From NCBI GenBank assembly GCA_963664875.1, contig OY761611.1, positions 1 through 64,000 on the forward strand: a DNA stretch of 64,000 nt. The letters run 5' to 3'. The stretch comes from Candidatus Kapaibacterium sp. Its GTDB lineage: Bacteria; Bacteroidota; Ignavibacteria; Kapaibacteriales; UBA2268. Below, piece by piece: positions 11,643 to 37,678 of this stretch; within the stretch, counting starts at the first letter, position 1, and the number at the start of each line of letters is the position of its first letter. The notes beneath the pieces were generated by a model. The model did not search any database, was not told the DNA's origin, and saw only the letters and a list, made by a program, of their open reading frames with translations. The position numbers and the translations under genes are program-made.

Positions 11643-11652
11643 GTATTTTGTA

Positions 11653-16805: not shown

Positions 16806-16852
16806 GATATCATTTCAATTTCTAAAATGTAAAAAAAAGCAATATGCAATAG

Positions 16853-18345: not shown

Positions 18346-18399
18346 TTTCCTCTAAATTAGGTTTTATAAAATTTGAACTTAAAGATATAGACGGCAGTA

Positions 18400-18418
18400 T
18401 GCGACATAATATGACGTA
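18400..18418 (-). promoter_or_regulatory. Island box 2
   Basis: Sense TACGTC-ATATTAT-GTCGCA; -10 spacing deviates from the other boxes. Confidence 0.65.
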
Positions 18419-18435
18419 AAAACATGTAAAAGTTG

Positions 18436-20228: not shown

Positions 20229-20242
20229 TTTCTGCTCCTTTG

Positions 20243-20845: not shown

Positions 20846-20849
20846 GATA

Positions 20850-20971
20850 ATACTCCAATATTATTTTGAAAAATGGAGTATCAAGAGGAGAGAATTTTGC
20901 ATTTATATGCCGCATCGTCCTGCCACCGTGGCTATTGCTCGGTTGGCTCACATCTAAGTGATCTTGATACT
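20850..20971 (-). promoter_or_regulatory. Candidate structured 5' leader with alternative SD-sequestering and SD-releasing stems
   Basis: 10-bp IR (20877-20886 / 20962-20971) overlapping an 8-bp IR (20850-20857 / 20874-20881) that covers the GGAG RBS; GC-rich core. Confidence 0.45.
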
Positions 20972-20980
20972 GAGGATTAG

Positions 20981-21508
20981 TTATATAATTTCTTTTACGA
21001 TTTGCCCAAATCCGATTGGCAAATCAAATTCATCAGATGTATTACTTAAATCAAGTATAAAAGCCAAATTCCCAACAACTAAGACAGAGCTGCGAAAATC
21101 ATCCCACATTGGTACGGAATACCCAAGATTTGCCTCTGTGTAACATCGTACTACATCAGCCATCTGATACATAAATGTTGTATCTTTATGAGTAAAGTTT
21201 TTCATTAGCACGAAGTATTTGCCATTCAGTTGTCCAAAAATTATTGGCATTTCTCTAAAGTTAAATCCGTTACTTTGAGATTGCTTCATTTTGATGAATG
21301 TTTCTGTATCTTGCTTTGCAATATCAATGATTGCAATCGGACAATCAAGTTCCGAAGCAAGATTTTTACACATAGCTTCAAACTCTTCACTATTATACCT
21401 CGAATTATAAATATGTCTTTTGTTTACGCATTTTGATTCCATTTCATTACGCATCCTTTGTAGTTCTTTGCGTAACTTTTCGATTTTGTCTGCTTTAAAT
21501 TGGCTCAT
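20981..21508 (-). CDS. Hypothetical protein
   Basis: 175-aa ORF with AGGA RBS, last gene of the 22468-20981 unit. Confidence 0.7.
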   Translation of the reverse strand: MSQFKADKIEKLRKELQRMRNEMESKCVNKRHIYNSRYNSEEFEAMCKNLASELDCPIAIIDIAKQDTETFIKMKQSQSNGFNFREMPIIFGQLNGKYFVLMKNFTHKDTTFMYQMADVVRCYTEANLGYSVPMWDDFRSSVLVVGNLAFILDLSNTSDEFDLPIGFGQIVKEII

Positions 21509-21524
21509 AACCCAAATCCTTGTT

Positions 21525-22115
21525 TTACTTTACCCAATCAAACCACACCGTTTGATTGAATAACGGAATTGAATAAGTTTTACAAACATTCATTGTATGT
21601 CCTGTTCCGCCTTGAAGTGGTTTTTGTAAGTCGTCGTAAAAGAGAGCAGCTGTAATCGGTGCTATGTTTGTTGTACCCAAAGCTTTGATTGTATCACGTA
21701 AGATATATGCTACTTTAACGGTAAATCTGTTTTTTACACCAGCTAAGTATGAATCTACAAACTTGCCATGCTTTGGGTTTAGCCTTGTCGCGTCTAATAT
21801 TTTTTGTTCTTTGCTTAAGTCAAGTTTATCTAAAGAAATTGTTTTCCCTGCTATATTATGTGCTACTCTGTGTTTTTCGTACGGAGTAATTACTTCAAGC
21901 CTTTGGCTATCAACTTTTGCTACACCCTCCGAAAAATATAAATCAGAGCCGGAAGCATTGCCGCTTCTAAAAATAATATGTTTTGAATTTTCGGCAAGTA
22001 GCTTGCCGATAGATACAAGTTTATCCTTGTCGCTATCGGCAACTATCCGCTTTCCCTCTAAAAGAATAATACTTCCGGGGTGGTCATACATTTCTATAAA
22101 CTGTTCGCAAGTCAT
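21525..22115 (-). CDS. SLOG/DprA-like Rossmannoid nucleotide-binding protein
   Basis: LEGKR, RSGNASGSD (cf. SGGAxGAD), GGTGHT...IPLFN. Confidence 0.7.
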   Translation of the reverse strand: MTCEQFIEMYDHPGSIILLEGKRIVADSDKDKLVSIGKLLAENSKHIIFRSGNASGSDLYFSEGVAKVDSQRLEVITPYEKHRVAHNIAGKTISLDKLDLSKEQKILDATRLNPKHGKFVDSYLAGVKNRFTVKVAYILRDTIKALGTTNIAPITAALFYDDLQKPLQGGTGHTMNVCKTYSIPLFNQTVWFDWVK

Positions 22116-22468
22116 TAGTCAAGTACCCTTCTTGCACGTTCTTGGAAGTGATCAAATTCCTTTTGAATCTCAACTTTATAAAAGCCGGGCCCAATAACAA
22201 TAGGGGAGTGCTCCTGATGCTTAAGTGTAACATCTTCTTTGACTTCGAAGTACAAGTTGTTGTCCTTGTCCTGACGTAAATCGAACTCACCAAATAGTTT
22301 ATGCATGTGCCCGGTTACTTCACCTTCTGCAAGCACACCGTCATTCTTTACTTTCATCGAACCAAATTCCTCGATACGTTCAACTTTCTTGATAACTACA
22401 TCACCCTGAAAGCCATATTGACCTACTTGCATTTTGCGAGCATCTCGTGGATTTTTTTCTTCAAACAT
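22115..22468 (-). CDS. Small His-rich beta protein (QGDV / GEVTGHxH / HxEH), the family usually found beside DUF6745 genes
   Basis: FQGDVVI, LAEGEVTGHMH, LKHQEH, GFYKVEIQKEF...RVLD; GGAG RBS. Confidence 0.85.
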   Translation of the reverse strand: MFEEKNPRDARKMQVGQYGFQGDVVIKKVERIEEFGSMKVKNDGVLAEGEVTGHMHKLFGEFDLRQDKDNNLYFEVKEDVTLKHQEHSPIVIGPGFYKVEIQKEFDHFQERARRVLD

Positions 22469-22513
22469 TTTTGTGTCTCCTATAGATAAAAGATTGGATG
22501 TTTTCTATATAGT

Positions 22514-22546
22514 AATGTACGATATGGTGCGACAGAATGTGACTTA
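22514..22546 (-). promoter_or_regulatory. Island box 3
   Basis: Sense TAAGTC-ACATTCT-GTCGCA; TGTCGC-N9-TACATT. Confidence 0.78.
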
Positions 22547-22557
22547 TAAGAATCATT

Positions 22558-25104
22558 TTATCGATTTTTTTCAAAACTTTCAACTAAATCTTCTGCTGTA
22601 TGTTTCATCCATTCAATCTCAGTTGCACCAAGATCTGTAAAGTGTATGTTAGAGTTATGTATCCCATCAATATTAGGTGAGTCAGGGAGGTCAGGAACGT
22701 AAAATCCCTTTATGTTATACTTTTCTATGTAGTAAAAAAGTCTATAAGCGGCATCGCTAAAATGTAGATTTACTTCCCTATAAAGACCATCATCAAAAAC
22801 AATCTCTTCGTAGCCGGATTGGAGTATTCTTTCGTAACCTATCATATTGAGCAATCTGCCGGTATCTCTTTCCCAAGGATGCTTACACGCATATACAAAG
22901 GCGTCTTTACCTATATCTTTCTGCAGAAAAGTCTCGTCAATTATATAATGGAGAATTGAAACATATCTTTTTTCATCAGCAAATTTAGATCTATATCTTA
23001 CTTTTTGTCCGGGAAATTGATATTCATTATCAGGAATTGATACAACAGGTTTTATTACGCCAATAAGTGTATTGTTATCAGTAATATATAATCTTGGTAT
23101 GTGGAATATTAGTTCAGTAAGTATGTTGATAAAATCTGTTGCTTTGTTATCAAATGGAACTCCATTTTCGATTAGGTATTTAATTGTAAGGAAATTTAAT
23201 ATATTAGAATGTAGATTTTCGTGAGGTTCATCTTCAATTTCATTATAAAAATCTGCCATATCTTTAAGATTTGAAAAGGTGAACTTAGCTAAATGAGCAA
23301 TTTGTGTATATCCAAAATGATTTCTGTAAAATTCAATATTTTGAAATATTGAGCTGTAATTCCACAAATCCTCTGATATTTTGTATAAGTTATTATTTTC
23401 AAATATTTTGATGCTGAGAGAAATTTTGTCTATATAACTATTAACCGTGCCATCTGATAAATCGTAACTGTATCTATTTAGTTCTTCTTGATGTATATTA
23501 TCTTCAACATATTGATAGAGTTCTTTGTCAGATTTACATAACTTTATCTCACAATTGCTACTTATCAGATTTGTTGAGGCTAACAGTTCCCCAAATTTTC
23601 TCAATAGCATTTTGCCAATTTCAATATCTGGTTTAGCTTTAGCTAATTCATTCAATTTATTTTGCATATACTCCTTGAAATTATCTGAATCGATAAGATT
23701 ATTGATATGTTCAGATAACTTTGTCAAAGATTTACTTCTCTCATTTAGAATATCTTCCTGAGAATTTTCTTTCTTTTCTTCATGGACTGTTTCTTCTTCA
23801 AACTCTTTGTACTCTTTTTTCCATGACCAACGAGTTAAACGTCTCCAGCCTTGATTCCAGCTGACAAAATCATTAGTACAATACTCAAGTGGTATATATG
23901 GTATTATGTCGGAATCGAACTCATAAACTTTGTACTCTGAATAATGTAGTTGTATAAAACTATAAGCATAGTCATACCATTCTTCTAAATCTGATTCAAA
24001 TCCTCTTTCTCGAATAAATTGCAGCATCTCTAAACCGGTTTTACCCAATAAATAACCAATAATTGCGATTTTAAAGACTTCTTCTTTCTCAGATGCAAGT
24101 GCTGCAAAGCGGTCAAAATTTTCCACTCCTGTAAAATGCTTATGGAAGTAAGCATCAAATAGTTGGAAGTTGTAATTTATAAATTGTTTTGGTGTCTCAA
24201 GGATAGGTAGGATTGAATCTAATACCTTCTTGGCTAATTCCGGCTTCGAGAGGTGCTTGACACAGCTATTAAAGACACTAACATAGAGTTGATGGTATTT
24301 TATAGTCAAAGATTCACTACCCGATAAACCTTGACTACCGGCTGGATAAAAGGTAGGTATTGCGTGTACTCTATTGATATAATGTTCGGAAGCCCATTCC
24401 TGTTCGTTTAGTGTACAGGCTAATTGTTCAGCTATTGATTCGTGAAATACATTTGCCTGTTCCAACTGAATAATTATCTTTTCTAACAGACCAAGATCGT
24501 TAAGAGCAGCAACATCTCTAATATAATTTCTTATTGCTGCGCAATCCTCGGACAACACCAAGTCTTCAGTATATTTAAAGTAATCAGTATAATATTTTAC
24601 AGAATTATTATTCAATTCCTTAATTATGTGATTGTTGCCCAAATTCTTCTTCATAGAAAGCGCAAAATTTACAGAAGGGAATTCTATCCTTTTGCAAATT
24701 CTGCCGTACCAATCGCTGTCTCCAAGACAATCAAGCACGGACTGGGCTAAATACATCAAATCCTGAGAATCTGTAGTGTCTTCTGCTTTTTCGAAATATT
24801 CTCTTGTTTTCGTTAAGTCTTCAGACAGATGATAATACAATTCTCCAATAATTCTATTATCACTATTATATTCAGAGACTTTTTCTAACAATGGGATATA
24901 TTTTAACGCCCATTTTCTATCTTCGAAGAATTTACAAACGGTTTCAAAGCATTCCAGCAAATCACGAAAACCTTTAGCTAAGTTAAAAAAAGCTTCAAGC
25001 ATTTTTTGCTTATAGCGAATATCATCCGATAGTTTCAGCTCTTTCTGCTTTGATCTAATTAGCTGACTAAGATCATATTTATTTGCATCGTAATTTTCAA
25101 ACAT
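22558..25104 (-). CDS. Helical-repeat protein with a divergent DUF6745-like C-terminal half
   Basis: TPR-like N-terminal half; LLNMIGYERILQ parallels LLIRYFGYERFLQ in the 982-aa paralogue. Confidence 0.65.
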   Translation of the reverse strand: MFENYDANKYDLSQLIRSKQKELKLSDDIRYKQKMLEAFFNLAKGFRDLLECFETVCKFFEDRKWALKYIPLLEKVSEYNSDNRIIGELYYHLSEDLTKTREYFEKAEDTTDSQDLMYLAQSVLDCLGDSDWYGRICKRIEFPSVNFALSMKKNLGNNHIIKELNNNSVKYYTDYFKYTEDLVLSEDCAAIRNYIRDVAALNDLGLLEKIIIQLEQANVFHESIAEQLACTLNEQEWASEHYINRVHAIPTFYPAGSQGLSGSESLTIKYHQLYVSVFNSCVKHLSKPELAKKVLDSILPILETPKQFINYNFQLFDAYFHKHFTGVENFDRFAALASEKEEVFKIAIIGYLLGKTGLEMLQFIRERGFESDLEEWYDYAYSFIQLHYSEYKVYEFDSDIIPYIPLEYCTNDFVSWNQGWRRLTRWSWKKEYKEFEEETVHEEKKENSQEDILNERSKSLTKLSEHINNLIDSDNFKEYMQNKLNELAKAKPDIEIGKMLLRKFGELLASTNLISSNCEIKLCKSDKELYQYVEDNIHQEELNRYSYDLSDGTVNSYIDKISLSIKIFENNNLYKISEDLWNYSSIFQNIEFYRNHFGYTQIAHLAKFTFSNLKDMADFYNEIEDEPHENLHSNILNFLTIKYLIENGVPFDNKATDFINILTELIFHIPRLYITDNNTLIGVIKPVVSIPDNEYQFPGQKVRYRSKFADEKRYVSILHYIIDETFLQKDIGKDAFVYACKHPWERDTGRLLNMIGYERILQSGYEEIVFDDGLYREVNLHFSDAAYRLFYYIEKYNIKGFYVPDLPDSPNIDGIHNSNIHFTDLGATEIEWMKHTAEDLVESFEKNR

Positions 25105-25133
25105 TTTGATTTTCCAATTAAATATACTACTTC

Positions 25134-26333
25134 CTATGCCTCAAACGCAGGCTTATCATAAACCTTCAATCCAAGCCGCCAATTTAGAGCATCTTCTACA
25201 GTTCTACAACTTTTATGCACTCCTTCAAGATGTTCTTCACCGGTTGTTGGGTTAATCATTTGAAGGAATGGGTACCAATCAGGATTCTTTATGTTATATT
25301 CAAATTCCTGAGGTATTTGAAACGCAATTAGCTGATAATTGTCTTGCATATCTAATACTTTTCGTTCTAAATACTTGAGCAGATTATCTTTACCCATATA
25401 TCTAATTCCCATCGAACGAAGCGTTGTATTTTGTGTTTTCAAGATTCTTAGAGCTTTCTTTTGAGAAGGCTTCATGTCCCAATACCAATTTGAAATTGGT
25501 TGGGATCTGAAGAAAGAAAAATGTGATTTATCCGGGAATACCATAGCCGGACCACGCTCATTATGTAAGGTCAGAGCTAATATCTGTCTTTGGCTTCTAT
25601 GTTCGAGAAATTTATATTTAGGTTTTTCGATAACAAAACAAGTATCTTTAAAAGGAAATACCATATACGAATTTCTGCTAACAATCTCAGCCACTTCAAT
25701 TTGCCGTTTTTCGTGTTCCGAGAACGGAATTCCCAAAATTTGAAGATATTTGAACATTAGAGAATAGCTCGATAACGATTTATATGCCATGGTACGTGAA
25801 GACGTGAAATTGTCATAAGGATGATAGATATTCTTGATGAGGTGGCAGTATATCAATTTACGTATTGTTACCATGAACTTATATCCGAAACTGATATTAC
25901 CATTAGATATACCATAAATATCCTCCAGTGTTGCCCTTTTAGTTTCCCAGCTTTTATTTCTCCCTGTTTTTTCGAGCATACTCTGAAAATTCTCTTCAGC
26001 TCTGCCAATTACTCCCATAAATTTGTTATACAGAATATCATAGGAAAAGAATATGCATGGAGGTATTCGCTCAACTATACGTGTTTTTATAGATTTGTCG
26101 TATTCACTAATAATATCATAATTTTCTTTAAACTCATCCATTCCTCCAAGGATGTGGATAGGAGGGACTGTTCCAGCAATTCTTCTGTATTCATCTTTCA
26201 GCGTATCTTTTAATACATCTAAATCAGCCTTCCCATATATGAAGGAATCATACATCATAGCAACGTGATTCCATGCATATTTTAGCAGCTCGATATCATC
26301 AGCAAACCCGGGAACATTAGATTTATAGTGCAT
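25134..26333 (-). CDS. DUF6745-like protein
   Basis: FPFKDTCFVIEKP, LHNERGPAMVFPD, NTTLR...YMG, MINPTTGEEHLEGV...ALNWRLGL..Y..P.FEA. Confidence 0.8.
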   Translation of the reverse strand: MHYKSNVPGFADDIELLKYAWNHVAMMYDSFIYGKADLDVLKDTLKDEYRRIAGTVPPIHILGGMDEFKENYDIISEYDKSIKTRIVERIPPCIFFSYDILYNKFMGVIGRAEENFQSMLEKTGRNKSWETKRATLEDIYGISNGNISFGYKFMVTIRKLIYCHLIKNIYHPYDNFTSSRTMAYKSLSSYSLMFKYLQILGIPFSEHEKRQIEVAEIVSRNSYMVFPFKDTCFVIEKPKYKFLEHRSQRQILALTLHNERGPAMVFPDKSHFSFFRSQPISNWYWDMKPSQKKALRILKTQNTTLRSMGIRYMGKDNLLKYLERKVLDMQDNYQLIAFQIPQEFEYNIKNPDWYPFLQMINPTTGEEHLEGVHKSCRTVEDALNWRLGLKVYDKPAFEA

Positions 26334-26369
26334 AACTACCTCAGCAAAATATATTTTCTATACCTATAT

Positions 26370-26402
26370 AATTTACGAGGCTGTGCGACAGAATGTGACA
26401 CT
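26370..26402 (-). promoter_or_regulatory. Island box 4
   Basis: Sense AGTGTC-ACATTCT-GTCGCA; TGTCGC-N9-TAAATT; GTGCGACAGAATGTGAC core identical to box 3. Confidence 0.8.
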
Positions 26403-26464
26403 ATCAGAATAAAAAAATGAGAAAATAACAAATGTCGAAATGTTTTTTTACATACATTTATAGA

Positions 26465-26503
26465 AATACCCAATGTAGTCTATTGTATATTACATTGGGT
26501 ATT
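26465..26503. terminator. Perfect 13-bp inverted repeat downstream of the mcrBC unit
   Basis: AATACCCAATGTA / TACATTGGGTATT. Confidence 0.5.
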
Positions 26504-26537
26504 CTATATTTGTGTGCGGTATTTACTGAAAATATAT

Positions 26538-26756
26538 TTATCGTATCTTGTCAAACTTATGACCGCAATTCAAGCAGCCATAATAGGGAGTAGGATCTCC
26601 ATACTCATTTTCAATGATAATGCAACCTAAAGTAATTTTGTTAGGATCATCCATAACTTCTGAAGTTGGTTCTCCATAAATAATCTTCCTAATTTTGCCG
26701 GAATTGCATTTAGGGCATCGTCTGTTTTTGGTGTTGGGGTTAAATTGGTTAGGCAT
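26538..26756 (-). CDS. Small zinc-ribbon protein
   Basis: CPKC...IIYGEP...LGC...CLNCGHKF. Confidence 0.75.
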   Translation of the reverse strand: MPNQFNPNTKNRRCPKCNSGKIRKIIYGEPTSEVMDDPNKITLGCIIIENEYGDPTPYYGCLNCGHKFDKIR

Positions 26757-26833
26757 AGTTTATAATTCTTAAGTTGTAATCTTTTCTAGAAAATGTATTA
26801 GAAGTATGTTGTTTATTTTACCTAAACTACGCC

Positions 26834-27019
26834 TCAAAAACCCGGATAAAGGAGTTTAGCAAGCTCCCCAACCTGAAAACCACCTTCTGCTAAAGAAGCA
26901 AGAAAGTCGTTATCATCATTAGTGCTCGGATATTCTTTTTTGCCGGTATAATACAATTTAACAGGGCACTCTCTACCAAGCTTGAATCGTGATTTTGTCA
27001 GGTATTTTGGTTTGGGCAT
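26834..27019 (-). pseudogene. N-terminal fragment of a DUF2779-type nuclease-like protein
   Basis: YLTKSRFKLGRECPVKLYY...LAEGGFQVGELAK, with a stop after 61 aa. Confidence 0.7.
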
Positions 27020-27031
27020 TATATGAGACTT

Positions 27032-28492
27032 TTATTTTAATGAAAGTGTATTTTTAATTCTATCAATAAAAGCTTTTTCTTGATTAGATAACTCCTCTTG
27101 TTTTACTTCATCCAATTTCCCTAGATTTGCAATTCCATCTACAATGAACGTCCCTTTCCCGCCAAACCACTCTTCTGAGTATGGGGATTTTTTATTTGGC
27201 CAATCATTTTCCCAATCTGAGTCAATTGGATAAAGCAGACCTCCAGCTACAAGTTTGTCTTTACTCTCTTTCTGATAAAATGACATATAAGAATGAATCT
27301 GATAAAAATCACTTCTATCTACATCTCCTTCGCTAATTCCAATTTTTCCTTGGAATTTCATTCTCTTATATTTTGCATCAAATACAGCAACTCGACCATC
27401 ATCATGCCTTAAAACTAAATCAGGATACATATGTCGGCTATAAAAACTGTTTTCATACAGATTTAGCTCCTCTTGTGCATTTACAGTCCAACCATCTGCT
27501 GATAAAGTATGACGGAGCAACTTTTCGAGATAGACTTCCCACAAATCTGCAATGTTTAGCAGATATGATCCTGCGTGTTTATTTCCTTTTCCTGATAAAT
27601 CATAATGATCTAATTCCAACAGAATTCCGGCATAATCTAAAATCGACTTGAATGATGCATATATAGGGTTGCTAAGTGATTTATGGTTCGTAGCACGCCG
27701 AAATATTTCCATTGTTACGCGTGTTTTCTTTGTTTCTTGTTTTAATGTATTTCTGACCTCACTCAACTTACCAGTAATACCTGTACCGAAGATTTCTTCA
27801 ATGCTGTCAAGAGCATTGCTCAACACTACCATAATCTCAGGTACCAAGAGGCGTTCCCGGGTTTTCGAGGAAATATTCCCTTTAATAGGAATATCTTTAT
27901 TGATAAATCTATTAAAATCTACATTGCCATGAACTTTTATGTCATGGTAATTGACTGTTTGATAGCTGCTGGGCAATCCAAGCAAACTTGCCTTGCTCAG
28001 TTTTTGTAAAAATAAATGCCCAATTATTCTTTTAATAAATTCGGTTTTATTTGTTTGCTTTTGTACTTTAATTGTAACGTCGCTTAAAAATATATCATCT
28101 GCGACATTGAGCATCCTGTTTAGGAGAACTTCAGAAAATCGCGAACCAATTTCAATATCAACATTTTTCCAAGTGATCTTCCCAATGTAATTCCCGGTTC
28201 TTACATTGAATTTATATTTATTATCTTCAAGATCTTCTCTGTTGATTGAAATAATAAATTCATCTTCCTCTCTTTTTTTTACTTTTAAGTGAGGAATTAT
28301 TGGTATCAATGTATTATCTGGAGATTTTTTTAGAAAATCTGCTAATGTAAGATTTATTGGAAAATATCCTTTATTTAGATTTTTACCTTCACATTTGTAT
28401 TTTGATTCTCCTATTACAAAATTTTTATCTCCATTTGGCTCATTTTTTATATAATCAGAATTAAAATTATCGACAGTTTCAATTTTCGCCAT
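27032..28492 (-). CDS. mcrC: McrC-family restriction endonuclease subunit
   Basis: GNYIG, LWEVY, YPDLV, FDAKYK, DFYQIHSY; overlaps the mcrB stop. Confidence 0.88.
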   Translation of the reverse strand: MAKIETVDNFNSDYIKNEPNGDKNFVIGESKYKCEGKNLNKGYFPINLTLADFLKKSPDNTLIPIIPHLKVKKREEDEFIISINREDLEDNKYKFNVRTGNYIGKITWKNVDIEIGSRFSEVLLNRMLNVADDIFLSDVTIKVQKQTNKTEFIKRIIGHLFLQKLSKASLLGLPSSYQTVNYHDIKVHGNVDFNRFINKDIPIKGNISSKTRERLLVPEIMVVLSNALDSIEEIFGTGITGKLSEVRNTLKQETKKTRVTMEIFRRATNHKSLSNPIYASFKSILDYAGILLELDHYDLSGKGNKHAGSYLLNIADLWEVYLEKLLRHTLSADGWTVNAQEELNLYENSFYSRHMYPDLVLRHDDGRVAVFDAKYKRMKFQGKIGISEGDVDRSDFYQIHSYMSFYQKESKDKLVAGGLLYPIDSDWENDWPNKKSPYSEEWFGGKGTFIVDGIANLGKLDEVKQEELSNQEKAFIDRIKNTLSLK

Positions 28493-30284
28493 TTGTTGCC
28501 TTTTCTTCATTATTATTCTTTGGGCCGAAGCTCCTTATTGCTTCTTCAAAAACAGATTTTACTTTATCCTCAATTTCATTTTCTGAGAAAAATGGGCGCA
28601 AATATTCTTTTAATAGAGGTTTAAGAAAATTATTTTTAAGAAATAGGATGTTATTTTTGTTTATCCTTCCTTTAGAGGAATTAATCTTCATAAAATAACT
28701 GTGACCAATCTGATAATCCTTAGATAATCCTAAATCTGTAATTTTTTCATTTACTTTCTCAGCATATGCGATAAATTCTGTTAAGCTTTCCGTATCAATG
28801 TATTCTGACAATTCTTCATATATGGCTTGTGGGTTAAAAATAAACTCCAACCAAATAAATCGGCGACGTAAAGCAAGATCAAAGCTATCAATTGATTTAT
28901 CTGTAGTATTCATAGTACCAATAACAATTACATTTTCCGGGATAAAAAATTCTTTATCTTCTTCCTTTCTTAGTGTTGAATATTGTGTCTTTATCTTTCC
29001 TTCTTCACCTCTATACTCAAGGCAATACAACAATTCTCCAAACACACGCGACAGTTCTGCTCTGTTAATTTCATCTATTATGAAGTAATAATTCTCTTCT
29101 TTACCTTTGGCTTTTTTACAGAAATTTCTGAACACTCCATCTTTTAATTCAAATTGAAGCCCTGATGTTGTATCAATTTTTATTGGGCGTATACCTTCAA
29201 TAAAATCTTCGTATGAAAAGGAAGAATGAAATTGCACAATTTCTATTCTATCTTTTAAATTTTCATTTTTGTTCTTATCATATTCTTCTATAATTCTTTT
29301 TGCATTATATGTTTTTCCTGTACCGGGAGCTCCGTATAGGATAATATTTTTACTATTGCCATCTTTCAAAACATCTAAGAATTTATTAGCATTGTCAGCA
29401 GCAGCATTTTTTTTCTTCTTTTCACTTTGATTGACATACTTATAAGCGGCATCATAGAAGGCAACAACATCTCCATTATTTGTACCAATATTGCCGTTCC
29501 CTTGGTATTTATCTAGAACATTGAAGAATTGATCAACAAGAATATTGGCTTTTACAGTTACCGAAGATTGTGTTATTTCTTCTTTTATCTGTTCTGCAAC
29601 ATACAGGCGCTGATCATCTTTTAGCTTAGGCCAATCTGTCTTTTTTGAGTATACATCTTTTTCGATTTCTATTATATAATCAGTAGCCTTTCTCATACAG
29701 CCATTTGTTAAAAAAATCTCTTCATTTTCGTAAAACAAGAAAGTGTTAATTGCACTTTTGGGGAAGCCATTTTTTTTCCAAGATTTAATATCCTCTTGGT
29801 TATAATTGGAAAATTTATTTTCCCATGCTTTCTTGAAGTTATCTTCTTGTAGAGTATGATCTTTGTAATATAGTTGGTCCTTGTTAGTAATTACTTCACA
29901 TAAGAAACTTGCAAAGGCAGTTAATTTATTTGCTATATATGGATCTAATATATCTTGATCAATATCTTCTTTAATTTTATTTACATTATATTCTTCTTTG
30001 TCAATATACAAAAGAGCAAGCAGATCAAATCCTTTAATATGCAAAGGATTGTAGCCGTCTATAAAATCTGAACTCCAAATTGAAAGTACTGCTTTAAGTT
30101 TTTGTTTTTCGTCTTCACCTTTAAGGAGCTTAAATTTATTTTCCCAATCCTTATATCGTTTTAGATTGATATGATGACCTATGTAGTCTTTTTCCTGCGA
30201 TTGCTTCACTAAATCACAAAAATTATTAACCAGATTATCCAAACTAATGTTTTTATTATCCAGTAAATTGAATTCTTCACTCAT
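28479..30284 (-). CDS. mcrB: McrB-family AAA+ GTPase
   Basis: GAPGTGKT, QFHSSFSYEDFIEGIRP, IIDEINRA, MNTTDKSI...ALRRRF, IGHSYF; AGGA RBS before ATG 30284. Confidence 0.92.
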   Translation of the reverse strand: MSEEFNLLDNKNISLDNLVNNFCDLVKQSQEKDYIGHHINLKRYKDWENKFKLLKGEDEKQKLKAVLSIWSSDFIDGYNPLHIKGFDLLALLYIDKEEYNVNKIKEDIDQDILDPYIANKLTAFASFLCEVITNKDQLYYKDHTLQEDNFKKAWENKFSNYNQEDIKSWKKNGFPKSAINTFLFYENEEIFLTNGCMRKATDYIIEIEKDVYSKKTDWPKLKDDQRLYVAEQIKEEITQSSVTVKANILVDQFFNVLDKYQGNGNIGTNNGDVVAFYDAAYKYVNQSEKKKKNAAADNANKFLDVLKDGNSKNIILYGAPGTGKTYNAKRIIEEYDKNKNENLKDRIEIVQFHSSFSYEDFIEGIRPIKIDTTSGLQFELKDGVFRNFCKKAKGKEENYYFIIDEINRAELSRVFGELLYCLEYRGEEGKIKTQYSTLRKEEDKEFFIPENVIVIGTMNTTDKSIDSFDLALRRRFIWLEFIFNPQAIYEELSEYIDTESLTEFIAYAEKVNEKITDLGLSKDYQIGHSYFMKINSSKGRINKNNILFLKNNFLKPLLKEYLRPFFSENEIEDKVKSVFEEAIRSFGPKNNNEEKATNGEN

Positions 30285-30482
30285 TATATTTTCCTTTATA
30301 TGTAAAATTTGTTTAATAGAATTGCTGCAAGCAATTTGTTGATGTAAAACTATGATAGCTATGCGCATCAGTTATATATTAAATACTAAAAACTCAAATA
30401 GTACTTTAATCCTACTTGTTAAATAATTTACAAAACAATATATTCATAAACAACTTATAAATATATTGACAAGCTAATATTA

Positions 30483-30857
30483 TTACTCATCCCAACTTTC
30501 AGGCCAAAACCTTGTTTCGTAATAATGAACAATAGATATAAGTTCTTCAGATACTTTCTTCGGTGTTTCATGAGCTAAATCACTTAACTTAAAGAAAATA
30601 CAATTTATGCTTCTGTACTCGCCTTCCACTTCCTCATCATAAATACTATAATCCTCATCATAGTTTTCCTTGACATATTCCAACAGTTCTGAGATGTTTA
30701 AACCATCAACTTCTAAATCATTCTCGATTGCATAGTTTAGTATCTCTTCGGCAATGCCGATTTCTATCAGTTCTGCTATTGCGAGCTCATCATCTTCTAA
30801 AGCATCCCATGTAGCAAATTCTTTATCGATATACTTAAGTAATTCCTGCTTTGTCAT
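30483..30857 (-). CDS. Highly acidic hypothetical protein
   Basis: 124 aa, D/E-rich, 4-bp overlap with the upstream gene. Confidence 0.75.
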   Translation of the reverse strand: MTKQELLKYIDKEFATWDALEDDELAIAELIEIGIAEEILNYAIENDLEVDGLNISELLEYVKENYDEDYSIYDEEVEGEYRSINCIFFKLSDLAHETPKKVSEELISIVHYYETRFWPESWDE

Positions 30858-31948
30858 AAAAATTCTCCAAATAAATAGTCACTAACAGCTTCCCAATCAG
30901 GAATTGCCGATGACCCAAATTGAATCAATTGTCCCGAGAAATTTTCAGAATCACTGTTAGGCGAATCATCTATTAGATAATCACCTTTGAGTAAGTTTTT
31001 ATGATGTGAGATTATCAATCTATTGTAGAGTGCGCTATCACTGTCGGCACCAAAGTATTTCTGAAGCCAATGCAATCTAAGCTGCCATACAGAGGGCTTG
31101 AGCCATGGGGCAGTAGCAAGCACATAAATATCATAATACTCAGCAAACATCTTTACTGTTTCTATAGCACCCTCAAACGGAGTCAACTTAGAGAAAATTC
31201 CGGGCACTTCGTCATACTTATCTTTATATTTTTCTCTCATCTCAGAATCTAATTGTCCGATTGCGGTATTGAAATCAGCTATAACATTGTCCATGTTGAT
31301 ATAGAGTATCTTTTTGATTGCAAATTTCTCTTCATCATGGATTTGAAATAGGTCATCATAATCGTCAACAAGCAAGTATAACTTTATTGTTCTCAGGTAA
31401 TCTTTCAAATTGTTGAATTGGTGACCGCCATCTTCGCTGATGAAAACATCTTTTATTACATTCGTAAAAATAGAACGAAACTTATCAAAATTATCTTTAC
31501 TGATCCGCTCATCATCTGTATTCCGATAGATTTGCAATATTTGACCATGCTGCTTAGATAATAAATGAGAAATTTCTGTTTTGAACTGCTGAAATGAATC
31601 TAACTCCTGATTAGACAGAAGCTCTACCAAAGTTTCTTCAGGGAAATAACTTGGGTTTAGTAGGGCCGTTTTCAAATTGTATTTTAATGCTGCATAAATT
31701 GCAGGTATTGAACCAAGAGAAGAAGCTATTAAGTATATATTACAGCCCTTATGTTCTGCAATAAGCTTATCAATTGAACTAATATCAGCACTCCAATTGT
31801 AAGTTTGAGCGTATTCAATTACTTGGAAGTTTTCAACTTCTTTTTCAAAATATTCTTTAACTTGAAGATATTTCGAAGAGTTTACTCCTTCGAGGTTTCG
31901 TTCCTCTATGCTTCGAAAACCGGAGAAATAAATAAATAAGTGTTTCAT
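30854..31948 (-). CDS. YqiA/YcfP-like alpha/beta hydrolase fused to an NT5C-like HAD nucleotidase
   Basis: SGFRS, ASSLG, LLNP, GGHQF; then YINMDNVIADF, ATAPW, HHKNLLKGDYLIDD. Confidence 0.82.
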   Translation of the reverse strand: MKHLFIYFSGFRSIEERNLEGVNSSKYLQVKEYFEKEVENFQVIEYAQTYNWSADISSIDKLIAEHKGCNIYLIASSLGSIPAIYAALKYNLKTALLNPSYFPEETLVELLSNQELDSFQQFKTEISHLLSKQHGQILQIYRNTDDERISKDNFDKFRSIFTNVIKDVFISEDGGHQFNNLKDYLRTIKLYLLVDDYDDLFQIHDEEKFAIKKILYINMDNVIADFNTAIGQLDSEMREKYKDKYDEVPGIFSKLTPFEGAIETVKMFAEYYDIYVLATAPWLKPSVWQLRLHWLQKYFGADSDSALYNRLIISHHKNLLKGDYLIDDSPNSDSENFSGQLIQFGSSAIPDWEAVSDYLFGEFL

Positions 31949-31983
31949 ATATATTCCAAATAAACACACAAAAAAGATATACT

Positions 31984-32016
31984 AATATAAAACCTTAAGC
32001 GACAAAAAGTGACACA
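31984..32016 (-). promoter_or_regulatory. Island box 5
   Basis: Sense TGTGTC-ACTTTTT-GTCGCT; TGTCGC-N9-TATATT. Confidence 0.78.
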
Positions 32017-32080
32017 AGTGTATATTTTATAAAATTATAGTATAAATATCATAACCTATGTATATTCAATGTTATAATAC

Positions 32081-35029
32081 CTACGCCTCAAATACCGGTC
32101 TATCATAAACCGTCAATCCAAGTCGCCAATTCAAGGCTTCTTCTACTGTCCTGATTCTTGGTTCAACTCCTTCTATATGTCGCTCGCCTGTGGTAGGATT
32201 TACCATAATCAGGTAGGGGAGTGTCCTTGTGTCGCTGCCATCTACTAAGTAAAGGAGACCTAATTGGTAGTCGTCTTGGGTATCAACTATATCTAAGTCA
32301 AGGTTTTGCAAGAAGCGTTCGTAACCGAAATAGCGTATCAAAAGATCACGAGTAGTAACATTGCTTACTTTTAATATTTGCTTTGCCACCATTTTATGGT
32401 TGTCAGATAAAATCCACCCGGGTATGCTGTTTGTATTCCATGCACCCAATACAGATTCAAACTCCAAAGGAGGCATACCTTCCTGAAAATTGATGCTGAA
32501 CTTGCAATTATTATAATTATTCTTAGGGAAGTTCTTCGGATCTCTAAGCATAAACTGGAATGTATCATTTTTATCGTACCATACATAGTCGCAATACAAA
32601 TATATCTCTGTAAGTAATGATATTATTTCGCTTGTTTTGCTATCTACGTTTACCACATACCTGAGCAATGCATCATACATCCACAGACGAACAAGAAACA
32701 TATTAACAGAATAGCTCATATTGCTATACAGAAATTCCAAAAAAGCATGAGAACGAATATGTTCATCACTTTCAATCGCACTTATCGCATCCTCTATATC
32801 ATTCCTTTTTGAGCCACCGGTGTACATGAGATGTGTAAGCAAGTCTGTGTAAACATCTGTGAAAATATGATCTAAATCAACGCTGTCATGTAATTCGTCA
32901 GTGCTTCCTCTGCTACTCAGGATATATTCATGAGTCAAAACCAGATATCTGCCTGCAGTTTGTTCTACTGTTTTGCCATCTATCTTGATTTTGTAGTCAA
33001 TATCTAAATCTGAATGATTCAGCGGATATTCCTCATCAGTATCTACTTTTTCAATGGAATGGCTGCAGAAGTCATGTTGCATTAAAAAAGAATTGTGGCT
33101 TTTTAAGTTACTTCTGAATCTGTCACCTGACTTCTGCAATAGCATTGAATTTCCCTGTTTGACAAGAGAAAGCAACTCATTCCTTTCAGCTTGATTTACT
33201 ATCTTTATATTATTTATACCCAAGAGCGATGCTAATCGTTCTAAACTTTTTTGAACTTCTGTTGTGGTATCTTCCATGCTAAGATTTGGCTTGCAAAACC
33301 GATCTCTTAGATTTGTTAAATGATTAAGTATATTAGATGCCTGCTCAAATAACAGCTCAATCTTAAATGAATCTATAAATACAAAAGGCCCTTGCTTTTT
33401 CATGCTGAATCCTATGGATTTTTGAATATTTTCAATTGTATGAATATTTTCAATAGTATAATTAGTTTTAGATGGGTTTAGATATTCTTTTTGTGAGAAA
33501 ATCTGAATATAATCCGGCAGTATTTTGCATCGTTTGGTATTAGGATTTGCGATTAGAGAGAGTCTTAATTCCTCACCAAAATCTACAAACACATCCCCAC
33601 AATCATCCTGAACTGCAAACAATTTATACTTAACAGTTTTTTGTTCTAAAAAATGATTTACATAGTACTCTTTAGCTTCTTTTACGGAGAATAATGATTT
33701 ACGGACTTTTTCAGGGAAAATTATCATTTGCTTTTCTTGATGGTCAGCAAAGCACAATTTGAGCTCCTCATCAGATTCTATTCTAAATAGAATAAACTGA
33801 TTATCAACATCTATTACATCAAATAATCTCATGATATTTTGCAGAGAAAAATCTTGTAATACATTGAAATTAGTTCTGTTTAGATGAAAGTTGTGCTTGA
33901 AAAACTTACGCAAAGAATTAGATGCGATTAAAACATTTTGCTCTGTGTCGTAATCGTTAATATCTATAAGTGCTGAAAAATCTTTAGAATTTATATCACT
34001 AAGATCGAAAGGAATTGGAGGTATTCGTACTGCGTCTCCATAGTTAACCGTTGCGAAATTGTTATTTGCAGAATGTTGATTTCTTAAAGATATATACTTA
34101 CTTTCTCTAGCTTTAATGAGTAATCCATCTGAGTTAGGAGCGAAGTCAGTCCAAAACTCAAAATTATTTCCGTCAATCTTGAATTTATGCTTGAAGAAGT
34201 TGTAACTTTTCAAGTCTTCTTCAATGTATATAGAATTTAAAGAAAATGTTTTAGCATTGTTTAAAGTTATATCTATATTCAGAGTAGAAAGTAGCAAAAG
34301 TGCATTTAGTATATCGTTTTCCGGTTCGTCCAAAATAAAACCTAAACCCCTAATTGCATCATACAGCCAAAATATATGCCTTTGTGATAAACTGAAATCT
34401 TTCAAATAATTGCAATACAGGTAATTTATAAACTGTAAATATTTATTATCAAAAGCATATTGTGATTTAAAATCCAAATTACCAAATATCATTATATTAG
34501 AGTTATACCTAAAGTCAGATTCTTCGATTATTCGCCTGAATAGTAAATTGTCGTTGGGATAAGCATAATGTTCAAATGGAAAAGAGGGACAATTTCTAAA
34601 TATTTTATAATATCTGCCACAAGCGAAATAGAATCTGGACGCAAGTACTTTTGATGATAATTCAAAATCAATATTATCAATCAAATCCAAATCTTCAGTT
34701 TCTCTATTTACCTCTATTTCAATTGTCAAAACAGAATTTGAAGTGTCAGGATTTTTTAATTGGACATCTTCAATTTTCCTGACATTGTTTTCAGTAGCGT
34801 GATACATGCGGCTATCTGTTCTTATTTCTGCTTGAGTCAATAGTATCGCAGGCTCTGAAATACAAATATAATCAGCTACCACTCTGAGAGCATCTACTAT
34901 ATCCTGCTCTCCGCAATCATTGTCATTGTTATAATACTTCTGCTTCCAATAATCCATTCTATCAAGGACTTGTTGTATTTGAGCAGGTGAGAGCTGGAAG
35001 CCTTCTTTGTTTTGTTTGCAGTCTTGCAT
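32081..35029 (-). CDS. Large DUF6745-like protein with apparently two tandem units
   Basis: N-terminal LSPAQ..RMDYW; WLYDA and WMYDA motifs; C-terminal MVNPTTGERHIEGV...ALNWRLGLTVYDRPVFEA nearly identical to the 399-aa paralogue. Confidence 0.8.
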   Translation of the reverse strand: MQDCKQNKEGFQLSPAQIQQVLDRMDYWKQKYYNNDNDCGEQDIVDALRVVADYICISEPAILLTQAEIRTDSRMYHATENNVRKIEDVQLKNPDTSNSVLTIEIEVNRETEDLDLIDNIDFELSSKVLASRFYFACGRYYKIFRNCPSFPFEHYAYPNDNLLFRRIIEESDFRYNSNIMIFGNLDFKSQYAFDNKYLQFINYLYCNYLKDFSLSQRHIFWLYDAIRGLGFILDEPENDILNALLLLSTLNIDITLNNAKTFSLNSIYIEEDLKSYNFFKHKFKIDGNNFEFWTDFAPNSDGLLIKARESKYISLRNQHSANNNFATVNYGDAVRIPPIPFDLSDINSKDFSALIDINDYDTEQNVLIASNSLRKFFKHNFHLNRTNFNVLQDFSLQNIMRLFDVIDVDNQFILFRIESDEELKLCFADHQEKQMIIFPEKVRKSLFSVKEAKEYYVNHFLEQKTVKYKLFAVQDDCGDVFVDFGEELRLSLIANPNTKRCKILPDYIQIFSQKEYLNPSKTNYTIENIHTIENIQKSIGFSMKKQGPFVFIDSFKIELLFEQASNILNHLTNLRDRFCKPNLSMEDTTTEVQKSLERLASLLGINNIKIVNQAERNELLSLVKQGNSMLLQKSGDRFRSNLKSHNSFLMQHDFCSHSIEKVDTDEEYPLNHSDLDIDYKIKIDGKTVEQTAGRYLVLTHEYILSSRGSTDELHDSVDLDHIFTDVYTDLLTHLMYTGGSKRNDIEDAISAIESDEHIRSHAFLEFLYSNMSYSVNMFLVRLWMYDALLRYVVNVDSKTSEIISLLTEIYLYCDYVWYDKNDTFQFMLRDPKNFPKNNYNNCKFSINFQEGMPPLEFESVLGAWNTNSIPGWILSDNHKMVAKQILKVSNVTTRDLLIRYFGYERFLQNLDLDIVDTQDDYQLGLLYLVDGSDTRTLPYLIMVNPTTGERHIEGVEPRIRTVEEALNWRLGLTVYDRPVFEA

Positions 35030-35089
35030 GATTATATTGACCTTTGATAGAATTTTAAAATACCATATTTAGAGTTTAGATAATATAGC

Positions 35090-36487
35090 CTATTTAGAAA
35101 GTATTGGTTCATCATCCCTTGCCATTTGTGGAGACTCTTCTTCGTCTAAATTTATGTTATATGCACCTGTAGAATTGTCTTTGAAGAACTTTCGATTGCA
35201 ACTTAAAGTTCTAAGAAGAGAGCAGTTTATTGGCTTGTCTTTGTCCCTAATGCTTGAAAATTCATAAGGAGGCAAGTACTTCAGGTGTGAAAACTTATGA
35301 TATATCACGAAAATGGCATAAAACTCTGTCCTTTTTAAATCTTGTATTGTGAAATTGAGAGATCCAAGGCTCAAACCATAATTAGGCGCATCTGAAAAAT
35401 CACCAAATTCATTGGTCATGTGTATCTCATCTTCAATATACCATGTCTTTGCCCTATGCATAGGTTCATCCCACTCATCAACACAATCCTGTTTCTCGTA
35501 AAAAAGTTCTAAATACGATTCATCAGTAATTTCTTCAGAGTATTTGTGTGCAGTGATATGAAACCCATCTCGATATATGCCTCTATGATTAGTAAAAAAC
35601 TCAATTTCCTGTCCTTTAATCAAAACTGTATTTTTATAATTTTTCAAATAGTCTTCTTTTCTTTCTTCATTGGCTGGATAAATGGTAATCTGACCTTCTG
35701 TGTTCACTATAAAATAGAAATCGGCTTGATTAAGAGATACAGCTGCATCAAGTATCTTATTGATTTCATAATTATATTCATGAAGATATTTATCTCCAAT
35801 AAATCGCAGAGCGTCATAAAGCCAAATTGCATTCCGATAGTCACTACCAACATAATCTTCATAGTTGCAGTAGAGGAAGTTAAGCAATTGTATCACTTCA
35901 TTATCCTTAACTTCCTTTTGCTCAGGATCTACTGATCCAAATATTCCATCGTGCAATTCACTTCTGAAATCACTCCTCTCAAATAAATATTTTAAAAGAG
36001 AAGCATTTTCGCAAAACTTATCTTCTACAGCTGCTTGATGTCTTAAATCTCTAAATATTTGTAAAAAGTCACCTCCTACTACATAAGATATTGCCGGAGT
36101 GTTATAGTTATGGAACCGAAAATATGCTTTGTCTTCTTTGTAATGTGTTATATCTTCAATATGTACAATCAGTGATTTTTCAGATTTATCATATATTTTG
36201 TTATTCTGATAGTGTTTTCTTATTTCAACATCAGCCAAGTCTAAAAGGTTTGGTGTAAATAAATCTATCTCTAAAAATATATCCATTTCATTAGAGACCA
36301 GCTCAATTTTTGGATTTGCGATACCTACATACTCAGCTATAAGTCTGACAGCAGATACCAATTCCTGATAACTCACATTACTTCCGTCATTGGAGTAGTA
36401 TCTGTCTCTCAAATAATCCATTCTTCCAAGCAATTTATCTATCTGCTCTTTTGTTAAATCAAAATCTTCAGCTCTTTTGGTATCCAT
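35090..36487 (-). CDS. Paralogue of the N-terminal unit of the 982-aa protein
   Basis: LTKEQ..RMDY, SDFR, IFG, NFLYCNY and WLYDA shared; start reassigned to ATG 36487. Confidence 0.8.
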   Translation of the reverse strand: MDTKRAEDFDLTKEQIDKLLGRMDYLRDRYYSNDGSNVSYQELVSAVRLIAEYVGIANPKIELVSNEMDIFLEIDLFTPNLLDLADVEIRKHYQNNKIYDKSEKSLIVHIEDITHYKEDKAYFRFHNYNTPAISYVVGGDFLQIFRDLRHQAAVEDKFCENASLLKYLFERSDFRSELHDGIFGSVDPEQKEVKDNEVIQLLNFLYCNYEDYVGSDYRNAIWLYDALRFIGDKYLHEYNYEINKILDAAVSLNQADFYFIVNTEGQITIYPANEERKEDYLKNYKNTVLIKGQEIEFFTNHRGIYRDGFHITAHKYSEEITDESYLELFYEKQDCVDEWDEPMHRAKTWYIEDEIHMTNEFGDFSDAPNYGLSLGSLNFTIQDLKRTEFYAIFVIYHKFSHLKYLPPYEFSSIRDKDKPINCSLLRTLSCNRKFFKDNSTGAYNINLDEEESPQMARDDEPILSK

Positions 36488-36517: not shown

Positions 36518-36550
36518 AATAAACGTGTTGAAGTGACAATATATGTCGTA
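36518..36550 (-). promoter_or_regulatory. Island box 6, in the divergent intergenic region upstream of the WYL gene
   Basis: Minus-strand TACGAC-ATATATT-GTCACT; TGTCAC-N9-TTTATT. Confidence 0.72.
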
Positions 36551-36679
36551 GATATTTTGATTTATCACTAAACTTTGTAACTCAAAAAATACATTTTTAA
36601 ATACAAAACTATCCGTCAAGTTCAGTCGCTTTGGTACAGATATTGCAGTAAAAGTAATTTTCAATTTCGGAAAATAGAA

Positions 36680-37678
36680 ATGTCTAAAATTCAACATATA
36701 ATACACTTACGCGATTGCCTGATGGCAGGGCAGAGGCTCGATTCTAATAATATAATTGAGCTTTTGAAAGATGAGTTTGATGCCAAAATAGACAAACGAA
36801 CAGCTCAGCGCTATATAAGTGAACTAAAGAATATGGAAGATCTTTATGTCGAAGAGAATATTGAAGGCAAAAAGATTATAATATACATTAGCGGCGAAAA
36901 CCGAAGAAGCTTCAGAGAGACCAATCCGTTGCCTAATCCGGGGAATTATCTGCTGTCGCTCAATGTTTTGAAGGCTCATCTTAAATCATTTGCCGGAACA
37001 AAAATTGAGAAAAATACGAATGAGTTAATATCTGAGATTGAAAAGGTTACTAAAAATAAAACCGAAATCTTTACTTCAAAAAGTCTGTTTTGGAATCAAA
37101 ATCACGGTAGCTACGATTATTCACCTCACGCAAAAACAATTGACCATATAACCGATTTAATAACTCAGCAAAAACTTCAATATGTGAGCTACGGAGATGC
37201 TCACAAACCTAATGGGTTTGTAGCTCAGCTTTGTGAGTTTTTTACATATAATGGCACTTTGTATGTAGCCGCTTACGTTTTTAAGCATAAGCATCATATA
37301 GCTCTTGCAGTGCAAAACATACTTAAACTTACTGATCTAAGCAAGGAAGACCAAGATCACTACTCCAATATCAATGTACCTCTCTTCTCATTCGAGGAGT
37401 TCAAAAGATATAGATTTGGCGTACATGAAGGCGAAATAAAAAAAGTTCGCCTTGAAGTCAGCAAAGAGCACAAACACTACTTCCTAAACCGCAATTTCCA
37501 CGACTCTCAAATAAATCTCTACGAAAACGACCCGGGCAGGCAAATGCAAATCACCTTAGAAGTTCCACTAAGCCCTGAATTAGTATCATGGATTCTCTCA
37601 TGGGGTGGGGAATTACAGGTAGTTTCTCCTAAAGAGTTGAAGGAGATGGTGGCAGAAAAGGCGAGGAGGTTGGTGTAG
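36680..37678 (+). CDS. HTH-WYL-WCX transcriptional regulator
   Basis: wHTH KRTAQRYISEL; YNGTLYV; WCX-type HDSQ...ELVSWILSWGGELQVVSPKELK. Confidence 0.9.
   Translation: MSKIQHIIHLRDCLMAGQRLDSNNIIELLKDEFDAKIDKRTAQRYISELKNMEDLYVEENIEGKKIIIYISGENRRSFRETNPLPNPGNYLLSLNVLKAHLKSFAGTKIEKNTNELISEIEKVTKNKTEIFTSKSLFWNQNHGSYDYSPHAKTIDHITDLITQQKLQYVSYGDAHKPNGFVAQLCEFFTYNGTLYVAAYVFKHKHHIALAVQNILKLTDLSKEDQDHYSNINVPLFSFEEFKRYRFGVHEGEIKKVRLEVSKEHKHYFLNRNFHDSQINLYENDPGRQMQITLEVPLSPELVSWILSWGGELQVVSPKELKEMVAEKARRLV

Follow-up and report, generated by a model that had tools for sequence, protein, structure and literature searches.

A WYL-headed accessory island in a Candidatus Kapaibacterium chromosome carries duplicated, fused and partly eroded DUF6745 genes with a single partner gene

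WYL regulators of the BrxR/CapW type are known from accessory and defence islands of bacteria, and they offer a first comparison for the locus described here, an accessory island of about 19.6 kb (18.0-37.7 kb) with a WYL-type regulator at its head. The island lies in the window analysed, which comprises the first 64 kb of the complete, single-contig 3.83-Mb genome of a Candidatus Kapaibacterium, a genus of Bacteroidota, and it contains genes for four large proteins, designated P465, P982, P399 and P848, and for a small protein of 117 amino acids (aa), P117. These proteins are compared here with a pair of phage families, DUF6745 (PF20530, phrog_31813) and its partner phrog_27831. The phage form of this pair is already known, whereas the multi-copy, fused and eroded chromosomal form of DUF6745 is new, and in the literature search no paper was found that names either 'DUF6745' or 'PF20530'. 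For the regulatory part of the island, the closest described systems are PafBC, a WYL activator acting through a non-palindromic motif (PMC6789036), and the RecA-NDp promoter, given in PMC5656591 as tTGTCRgtg-8nt-TannnT. For the phage-type part, a possible analogue is gp54 of mycobacteriophage Tweety, which PMC9262239 presents as a demonstrated counter-defence protein, whose N- and C-terminal regions flank a variable tract.

The reading preferred here, to which a probability of roughly 0.45 is attached, is that the island carries a captured phage DUF6745/partner module, which stands under WYL control and serves the host in its conflict with phages. Within the island this module is duplicated, fused and partly eroded, with P117 as the single partner gene. 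All sizeable genes between 18.0 and 36.5 kb are on the minus strand and, among the large proteins encoded there, Pfam DUF6745 is assigned to P399 (25134..26333) and P982 (32081..35029) only. With the PF20530 gathering cut-off of 27 bits, P399 scored 26.6 bits as a whole protein, 28.7 bits for the domain alone and 27.9 bits in a six-frame search of the genome, a borderline result that was counted as passing, and P982 scored 23.2, 26.3 and 26.4 bits, all slightly under the cut-off. A hidden Markov model (HMM) of the family, built from 147 of the 150 listed P399 matches after leaving out P399 itself, P982 and a 434-aa protein of the congener G004, gave 201 bits for P399 and 141.7 bits for P982. 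In a phmmer search of 1.84 billion representatives, P399 obtained 896 matches at E<=0.001, which are cluster representatives at 50% identity and which all align to P399 residues ~190-399, and PF20530 was found on 47 of 50 aligned family members. Judged by these profiles, P399 and P982 are true members of the DUF6745 family, P982 being a divergent one. P399 is an intact protein of typical phage size, as complete DUF6745 open reading frames (ORFs) of the surveyed phage loci have a median length of 399 aa and reach 600 aa or more in only 1/57 cases. Its AlphaFold 2 (AF2) model has a mean predicted local distance difference test score (pLDDT) of 73.9 and is confident at residues 10-80 and 190-399.

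P982 is a composite protein, made up of a P465-like half (residues ~1-310), a unique middle part and a further DUF6745-family protein (residues 568-982). Since hhalign aligned residues 568-982 to family positions 22-341 (probability 100%, E 2.4e-41), almost the full length of the family profile, this back half is a complete DUF6745 protein with its own N-terminal module. P399 and P982 share 47% identity over 118 aa in BLASTP (E 2e-27), and their N-terminal and middle parts show large differences in length and sequence. An earlier note on this DNA had counted four diversified DUF6745 proteins in the island; instead, the island holds two intact members, one N-terminal remnant and one doubtful degenerate copy, and homology at the level of profiles is found for P399 and P982, while P465 yields two matching pieces and P848 a weak colinear match only.

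The similarity of P399 and P982 is highest at their ends, and the near-identity of the two C-termini pointed out earlier is borne out, with 32/45 residues of the last 45 aa shared. At the DNA level, 70% of bases are identical over the same stretch, so that the reported nucleotide similarity is real, and yet it amounts to no more than protein conservation explains. Because shared residues are encoded by the same codon in 16/32 cases in the tail as compared to 10/22 upstream, neither gene conversion nor a DNA-level element is indicated for the two C-termini, and gene conversion was rejected. Nor is the tail a special feature of these paralogues, as had been supposed. Across the 147 outside members, 23 alignment columns are kept in at least 85%, and 13/23 of them fall in the C-terminal stretch. 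These columns comprise P, the H of LHN, N..R, G, D, Y.L, L.M.NP[ST], H.EGV, T, A, R and P, with L.M.NP[ST], H.EGV and the final T, A, R and P in the tail. By this measure of conservation, the C-terminal 45 aa are the most conserved stretch of the whole DUF6745 family and belong to a family-wide core, of which P399 retains 21/23 columns, P982 19/23 and the G004 orthologues 21/23 each.

This distribution bears directly on the proposal that the C-terminal ~45 aa dock the metal-binding 117-aa protein, with variable N-termini conferring specificity as sensors, decoys or effectors. The proposal draws on the almost constant adjacency of the partner in phages, on the presence of one partner gene for several DUF6745-like genes and on the marked divergence of the N-terminal and middle parts of P399 and P982. 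However, the His, Glu, Asn and Arg residues of the tail are kept in at least 85% of the 147 members, a degree of constancy more typical of a catalytic or ligand-binding site, and P465 and P848 lack the tail, so that only two of the proteins could dock in this manner. Docking is on this evidence an unlikely explanation, and the assignment of sensor, decoy or effector roles to the individual paralogues is speculation. Under the preferred reading of a captured phage module, the conserved core would serve as an active or ligand-binding centre, which the pattern of invariant residues suggests at least as well as a docking surface.

The remaining two large proteins are related to the family to a lesser extent. 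P465 (35090..36487) aligns with the front of P982 in BLASTP with 29% identity over 233 aa (P982 residues 6-230, E 4e-24), and a second comparison gave 28% over 320 aa, so that the match spans the first ~230-310 aa of P982, which agrees with the homology over ~300 aa recorded before. Against the family HMM, P465 reached 9.9 bits only. With hhalign, its residues 10-78 aligned to family positions 16-82 (probability 88.5%, E 2.7e-6), a three-sequence alignment of the N-terminal module of P465 and the P982 front gave a probability of 63.6%, and residues 218-263 of P465 aligned to subfamily positions 168-213 with a probability of 52% (E 1.5e-4). Only these two colinear family pieces match in P465 and in P982 residues 1-310, and the conserved core was not found in either. 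P465 is thereby best described, on alignment evidence, as an N-terminal remnant, which retains the N-terminal module of the DUF6745 family and the initial helices of the domain but not the conserved core, and which has a second copy in the front half of P982.

P848 (22558..25104) is an orphan, with one relative among 5.8 billion proteins, namely its orthologue in G004. The earlier assertion that it carries a degenerate version of the domain is upheld in part. Residues 636-788 aligned in hhalign to a 12-sequence subfamily over 144 colinear columns (probability 17.6%, E 0.0014) with a score of 29.0, as compared to a mean of 15.7 and a maximum of 25.6 for shuffled controls, and 0/170 column shuffles reached it, column shuffling being a lenient null. 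On the other side, Pfam gave no match even at E 10, the family HMM gave 2.4 bits (E 0.16), hhalign with the broad family gave a probability of 1.2%, BLASTP found no match to P399 and only E 0.005 to P982, and the core motif M.NP[ST]..H.EGV is not recognisable. In the ESM Atlas, nothing was found for residues 590-848, and residues 1-440 gave only a 0.85 lead to DUF5717, which is not usable. P848 begins 30 nt behind P399 and lies immediately upstream of the P117 gene, at the site taken by DUF6745 in phages, a position that fits its reading as a degenerate copy. Such a reading of residues ~636-788 is probable but unproven.

The small partner P117 (22115..22468) matches phrog_27831 (E 2.6e-11) and is the sole gene of the partner type in the genome, with one match genome-wide; it is separated by one gene (P848) from P399 and by ~9.6 kb from P982. 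A word-based search returned eight relatives, and in the resulting alignment of eight sequences the residues Q21 G22 D23 V24, G49 E50 T52 H54 H56 and H84 Q85 E86 H87 are invariant, in accordance with the motifs QGDV, GE.TGH.H and H.EH singled out beforehand. The AF2 model of this His-rich protein consists entirely of strands (pLDDT 81), and its four conserved His together with one Glu may form a metal site. In BFVD, its matches are uncharacterised phage and rudivirus proteins only, the best with E 4e-6 and a TM-score of 0.67.

Pairing of the two families was surveyed by a scan of IMG/VR, which gave 197 relatives of P117, and the best 80 loci were inspected. In 76/80 of them the P117 relative has a DUF6745-family ORF as its neighbour on the same strand, either before or after it, at a distance of at most 413 nt in stop-to-stop coordinates. 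When starts were set by a first-ATG rule, usable in 45 loci, the median gap was 5 nt and 38 of the gaps measured <=30 nt, the few large negative values arising from over-extended starts. No ORF in the 80 loci matches both HMMs, and no longer fused form of the DUF6745 domain was found in the search, which by its own caveat is weak evidence. When the island proteins were compared by phmmer with the ORFs of these loci, only P117, P399 and P982 found matches. Among 401 genomes sampled from the phylum, DUF6745 is present in three, this genome included, and both of the other two have the partner gene directly upstream. The adjacency of the two families in phages, which the earlier note had pointed to, is thus confirmed by 76/80 phage loci and 2/2 other genomes of the phylum, and since only 3/401 phylum genomes have DUF6745, this chromosome is unusual in having the pair at all and in having it in several copies. 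A phage origin of the chromosomal module is plausible, because the partner family is a PHROG and DUF6745 is confined to these three genomes of the sample. In its domain, conserved positions, the length of P399 and the partner family, the module resembles the phage pair, for which adjacency is nearly obligatory. It departs from the latter in being chromosomal, with two intact and two eroded copies per partner, of which one is fused behind a remnant, and in the far greater length of P982 and P848.

Phage neighbourhoods indicate the stage at which the pair may operate. Among 147 ORFs from 13 phage loci, the first selected of 26 with full flanks, neighbours include a UvsX-like recombinase, thymidylate kinase, exonucleases, HNH and NinG nucleases, a helicase and ParB, besides a DnaD-like loader, methyltransferases, a phosphatase, one transposase and one endolysin, and none of the 147 falls into the head, tail or connector categories. 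As the neighbours are of the replication type and none is structural, the pair belongs to the early, replication and takeover part of phage genomes. Placement in early, non-structural regions is also what would be expected of counter-defence genes, and by analogy with Tweety gp54 the island genes could be envisaged as those of a resident mobile element that neutralise a host or competitor defence. Like DUF6745, gp54 is an early phage gene product with distinct N- and C-terminal regions. It differs in that no partner of the phrog_27831 type was seen among its three neighbour genes scanned with Pfam, PHROGs not having been run. Homology of gp54 to DUF6745 was considered and dropped, given no Pfam match in gp54 and an hhalign probability of 0.1%. 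No tetrapeptide tract was noticed in the island translations, for which no repeat finder was run, and the island has a host-type WYL regulator and restriction systems, which fits poorly with a counter-defence role and makes it a very improbable one. In the preferred reading of a module captured for the host's use, the probable targets of the phage pair during takeover would be nucleic acids, nucleotides or a protein of either host or phage, because the pair is tightly coupled and located among early genes of DNA and nucleotide metabolism and not among structural genes.

The island can be compared with that of the congener G004. A search with P982 found the cluster in 2/41 related genomes, this genome and G004, in which it reads in the order WYL regulator (79% identity), GmrSD, P465 (50%), a 434-aa orthologue of the P982 back half (67%), P399 (78%), P848 (69%), P117 (86%) and the orthologues of a 200-aa (86%), a 360-aa (93%) and a 237-aa protein (86%). 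The two halves of P982 are separate genes in G004, of 466 aa and 434 aa. Genes for McrBC and for the 371-aa, 124-aa, 196-aa and 175-aa proteins are missing from the G004 cluster, and the flanking genes differ. GmrSD (L010 6438-8234) occupies a site between the WYL regulator and the P465 orthologue, at which nothing is inserted in the present genome, while a cassette of the 371-aa gene, the 124-aa gene, McrB and McrC (27032..31969) is absent from the same place in G004. Because McrBC here and GmrSD in G004 are inserted at two points of one conserved cluster, the cluster sits in a defence-island hot spot.

The same comparison weighs on a different explanation, that the island is a decaying early region of a phage or mobile element, in which duplication, fusion and erosion are neutral and nothing is done for the host. 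In favour of decay, the family core is absent from two of the four large proteins, one of the conserved His is no longer present in P982, and the interval between McrC and P399 holds a truncated nuclease-like stub. Furthermore, the DUF6745/partner pair of G213, one of the other two phylum genomes with the domain, is broken by stops and a frameshift, and the cluster is confined to two of the 41 genomes. Yet in both species all nine shared genes have intact reading frames and keep one order, at 50-93% identity, conservation extends to the promoter boxes, P399 keeps 21 of the 23 core positions, and a scan of island proteins with Pfam and PHROGs detected no gene for an integrase, capsid or tail. 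Decay of this kind is therefore rather unlikely as an account of the locus as a whole.

Coordinated expression of the module is suggested by a repeated sequence element. A 31-nt repeat precedes the genes for P117, P399 and the 371-aa protein, with the consensus GTCAC-N5-TGTCG-N10-TAnnTT, in which TAnnTT stands 10 bases downstream of TGTCG. Its 15-nt core has five matches in the window at <=3 mismatches as compared to 0.96 expected, and 0/100 shuffles reach five; genome-wide there are nine matches at <=2 mismatches, four of them in the island, and none for a reversed-pattern control. GTCA-N5-TGTCG occurs four times without mismatch in the window, always within the island on the minus strand and ending 29-60 nt before a start codon. 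Exact copies of the box lie at 22513..22543, ending 60 nt upstream of the P117 start codon, and at 26369..26399, ending 51 nt upstream of the P399 start and conserved at the G004 orthologue; a copy with two mismatches at 31983..32013 stands ahead of the 371-aa/124-aa/McrBC cassette, and another box at 18401-18415 belongs to a 106-aa ORF, all of these on the minus strand. On the plus strand, two degenerate boxes with one mismatch each, GACA-N5-TGTCG and GTCA-N5-aGTCG (36535..36628), face the WYL gene, the second ending 51 nt before its ATG. Similarly in G004, boxes are found ahead of the orthologues of P117 and P399 and behind that of the 237-aa protein, and two one-mismatch boxes precede the WYL gene in the same orientation. 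No box faces P465 or P982, and hence the earlier statement that all five genes are in boxed units holds for P399, together with P848, and for P117, and fails for the other two.

The regulator itself (36680..37678, plus strand, 332 aa) is divergent from P465. It matches Pfam WCX (PF25583, E 9e-13) at residues 255-331 and the PADLOC WYL model (E 4e-20) at residues 148-331, while no model matched an N-terminal helix-turn-helix. A WYL/WCX regulator divergent from cargo operons, with type IV restriction among the cargo, is an arrangement shared with WYL-regulated defence islands. The box, which is non-palindromic, has TGTCG followed by TAnnTT and stands ahead of several cargo units and of the regulator gene, resembles the RecA-NDp promoter (PMC5656591). 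It is distinguished from that promoter by an extra upstream GTCAC half-site, and the single regulator gene differs from the PafB/PafC heterodimer (PMC6789036). From the placement of these sequences we infer that the box is the promoter or operator of the regulator and that the island forms one regulon. In it P399 would make up one unit together with P848, P117 another together with the genes that follow, and the McrBC cassette and the 106-aa ORF one each, and P465 and P982 would be read from the divergent region on the regulator side.

Taken together in mechanistic terms, the preferred reading would assign the working role to the DUF6745 subunit, whose conserved His, Arg, Tyr, Asn and His-x-Glu may constitute an active or ligand-binding centre, and which would act together with the small partner bearing the suggested metal site. 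The chromosomal module would have been captured and placed under the WYL regulator, and may be induced upon DNA damage or infection, as known WYL regulons are, to serve the host against phages by way of defence or exclusion. The single P117 would be the partner of both P399 and the C-terminal half of P982, and P465 and P848 would be paralogues without catalytic activity that act as adaptors or are undergoing decay. A more specific version, in which the island is a WYL-switched anti-phage system made from captured phage genes, must be regarded as distinctly improbable at present. In that version DUF6745 paralogues with differing front ends, among them the coreless P465 and P848 as adaptors, would share P117 as their small metal-binding subunit and make up an enzyme of a new fold, which would act on nucleic acid or nucleotides once the regulator is activated by infection or DNA damage.

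Several observations count against the preferred reading. The island is missing in three of the four congeners searched with P982, and its identity to G004 of 50-93% is to be set against 54, 76, 80-90 and 97% for four other proteins of the window; as the former range lies within the latter of 54-97%, fast or arms-race evolution of the island was rejected. P982 has F848/Q849 in place of the LHN His and also lacks the following Asp, and its G004 orthologue keeps the His. Membership of P848 in the family depends on E ~1e-3 only. Instead of the coupling seen in the phage pair, P117 is not translationally coupled to a DUF6745 gene and has its own promoter box, 89 nt behind P848, and the spacer of the island box is one base shorter than that of RecA-NDp. 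PADLOC and likewise NCBIfam gave no matches for the DUF6745-like genes or P117, the PADLOC result being the one that counts against the preferred reading.

Structural comparisons add to this side of the balance. Neither the P399 nor the P117 model has a relative among solved structures, and profile searches of PDB sequences returned nothing under E 0.2. For the P399 model, Foldseek found no match in the PDB at E<=0.001 and the best VIA wide hit had Z 4.3 over 66 residues. For the P117 model, Foldseek likewise found no match in the PDB, and the best VIA hit was the Yippee domain of Mis18 with Z 3.0 and a root-mean-square deviation of 4.0 over 58 aligned residues, followed by a second Mis18 Yippee-like entry (Z 2.5), cereblon (Z 2.3) and YPEL5 (Z 2.2). 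A beta-tent fold was not adopted for P117, the VIA scores being too weak, and a cupin fold, suggested by the GH.H...E pattern, was dropped, as no cupin occurs among the 47 chains with Z>=2.

The locus has a bearing on phage biology in general, since DUF6745 and its partner, with 896 representatives, are among the commoner unstudied phage gene pairs. A copy in a completely sequenced chromosome, accompanied by a recognisable regulator, suggests when such genes are switched on, and the island supplies natural 'mutants' in the form of copies with and without the core and one copy without the conserved His, besides one partner for several paralogues. If the island is an anti-phage system, then the thousands of phage copies would represent the counter-weapon to, or the original weapon of, the same biochemistry, and if the pair is an enzyme of new fold in phage-host conflict, a large block of viral dark matter would be explained. 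Even if the genes are only decaying cargo, the locus remains a clear example of a hot spot for the exchange of restriction cassettes that is built around a WYL regulator and its box.

The inserted cassette meant by the latter contains McrB, a 629-aa protein with an AAA_5 domain (E 1e-17), and McrC, a 492-aa protein matching the McrBC family PF10117 over the full model length (E 2.5e-33); their genes overlap, and together they qualify as a McrBC type IV restriction system. At the head of the cassette, the 371-aa protein (30854-31969, minus strand) is a fusion protein, which combines a UPF0227/YqiA-like esterase domain and a 5'(3')-deoxyribonucleotidase (NT5C) domain. It is followed, directly upstream of McrB, by the 124-aa protein (30483-30857, minus strand), which has a pI of 4.05 and 28% Asp+Glu, gave no family match and could be a DNA mimic or an immunity-type protein. 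The interval between McrC and P399 (26334-27031, minus strand) contains the nuclease-like stub of ~60 codons, which resembles the beginning of a longer, truncated gene, and an ORF of ~72 aa whose two CxxC pairs form a zinc-ribbon-like pattern, and both may be debris of cassette turnover.

Behind P117, the rest of the island (18025..22115, minus strand) encodes the 196-aa, 175-aa, 200-aa, 360-aa and 237-aa proteins and the boxed 106-aa ORF. The 196-aa gene (21525-22115, minus strand) is DprA-like (phrog_768, E 6e-11) and has a one-base overlap with the P117 stop codon. The 237-aa (18436-19149, minus strand) and 360-aa (19146-20228, minus strand) proteins, for which no family match was found, are tandem paralogues with 52% identity over the first 173 aa; their genes share a 234-nt DNA repeat at 84%, and each overlaps the stop codon of its neighbour. 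Beyond the island, beside a tRNA-Met gene, the region 11521-17854 encodes a 927-aa UvrD-type helicase with a PD-(D/E)XK nuclease domain (GajB-like by PADLOC), followed by a 660-aa and a 333-aa protein, both without a family match; a one-mismatch box occurs in this region at 11984, and these genes may represent a further defence unit in the variable region to which the island belongs.

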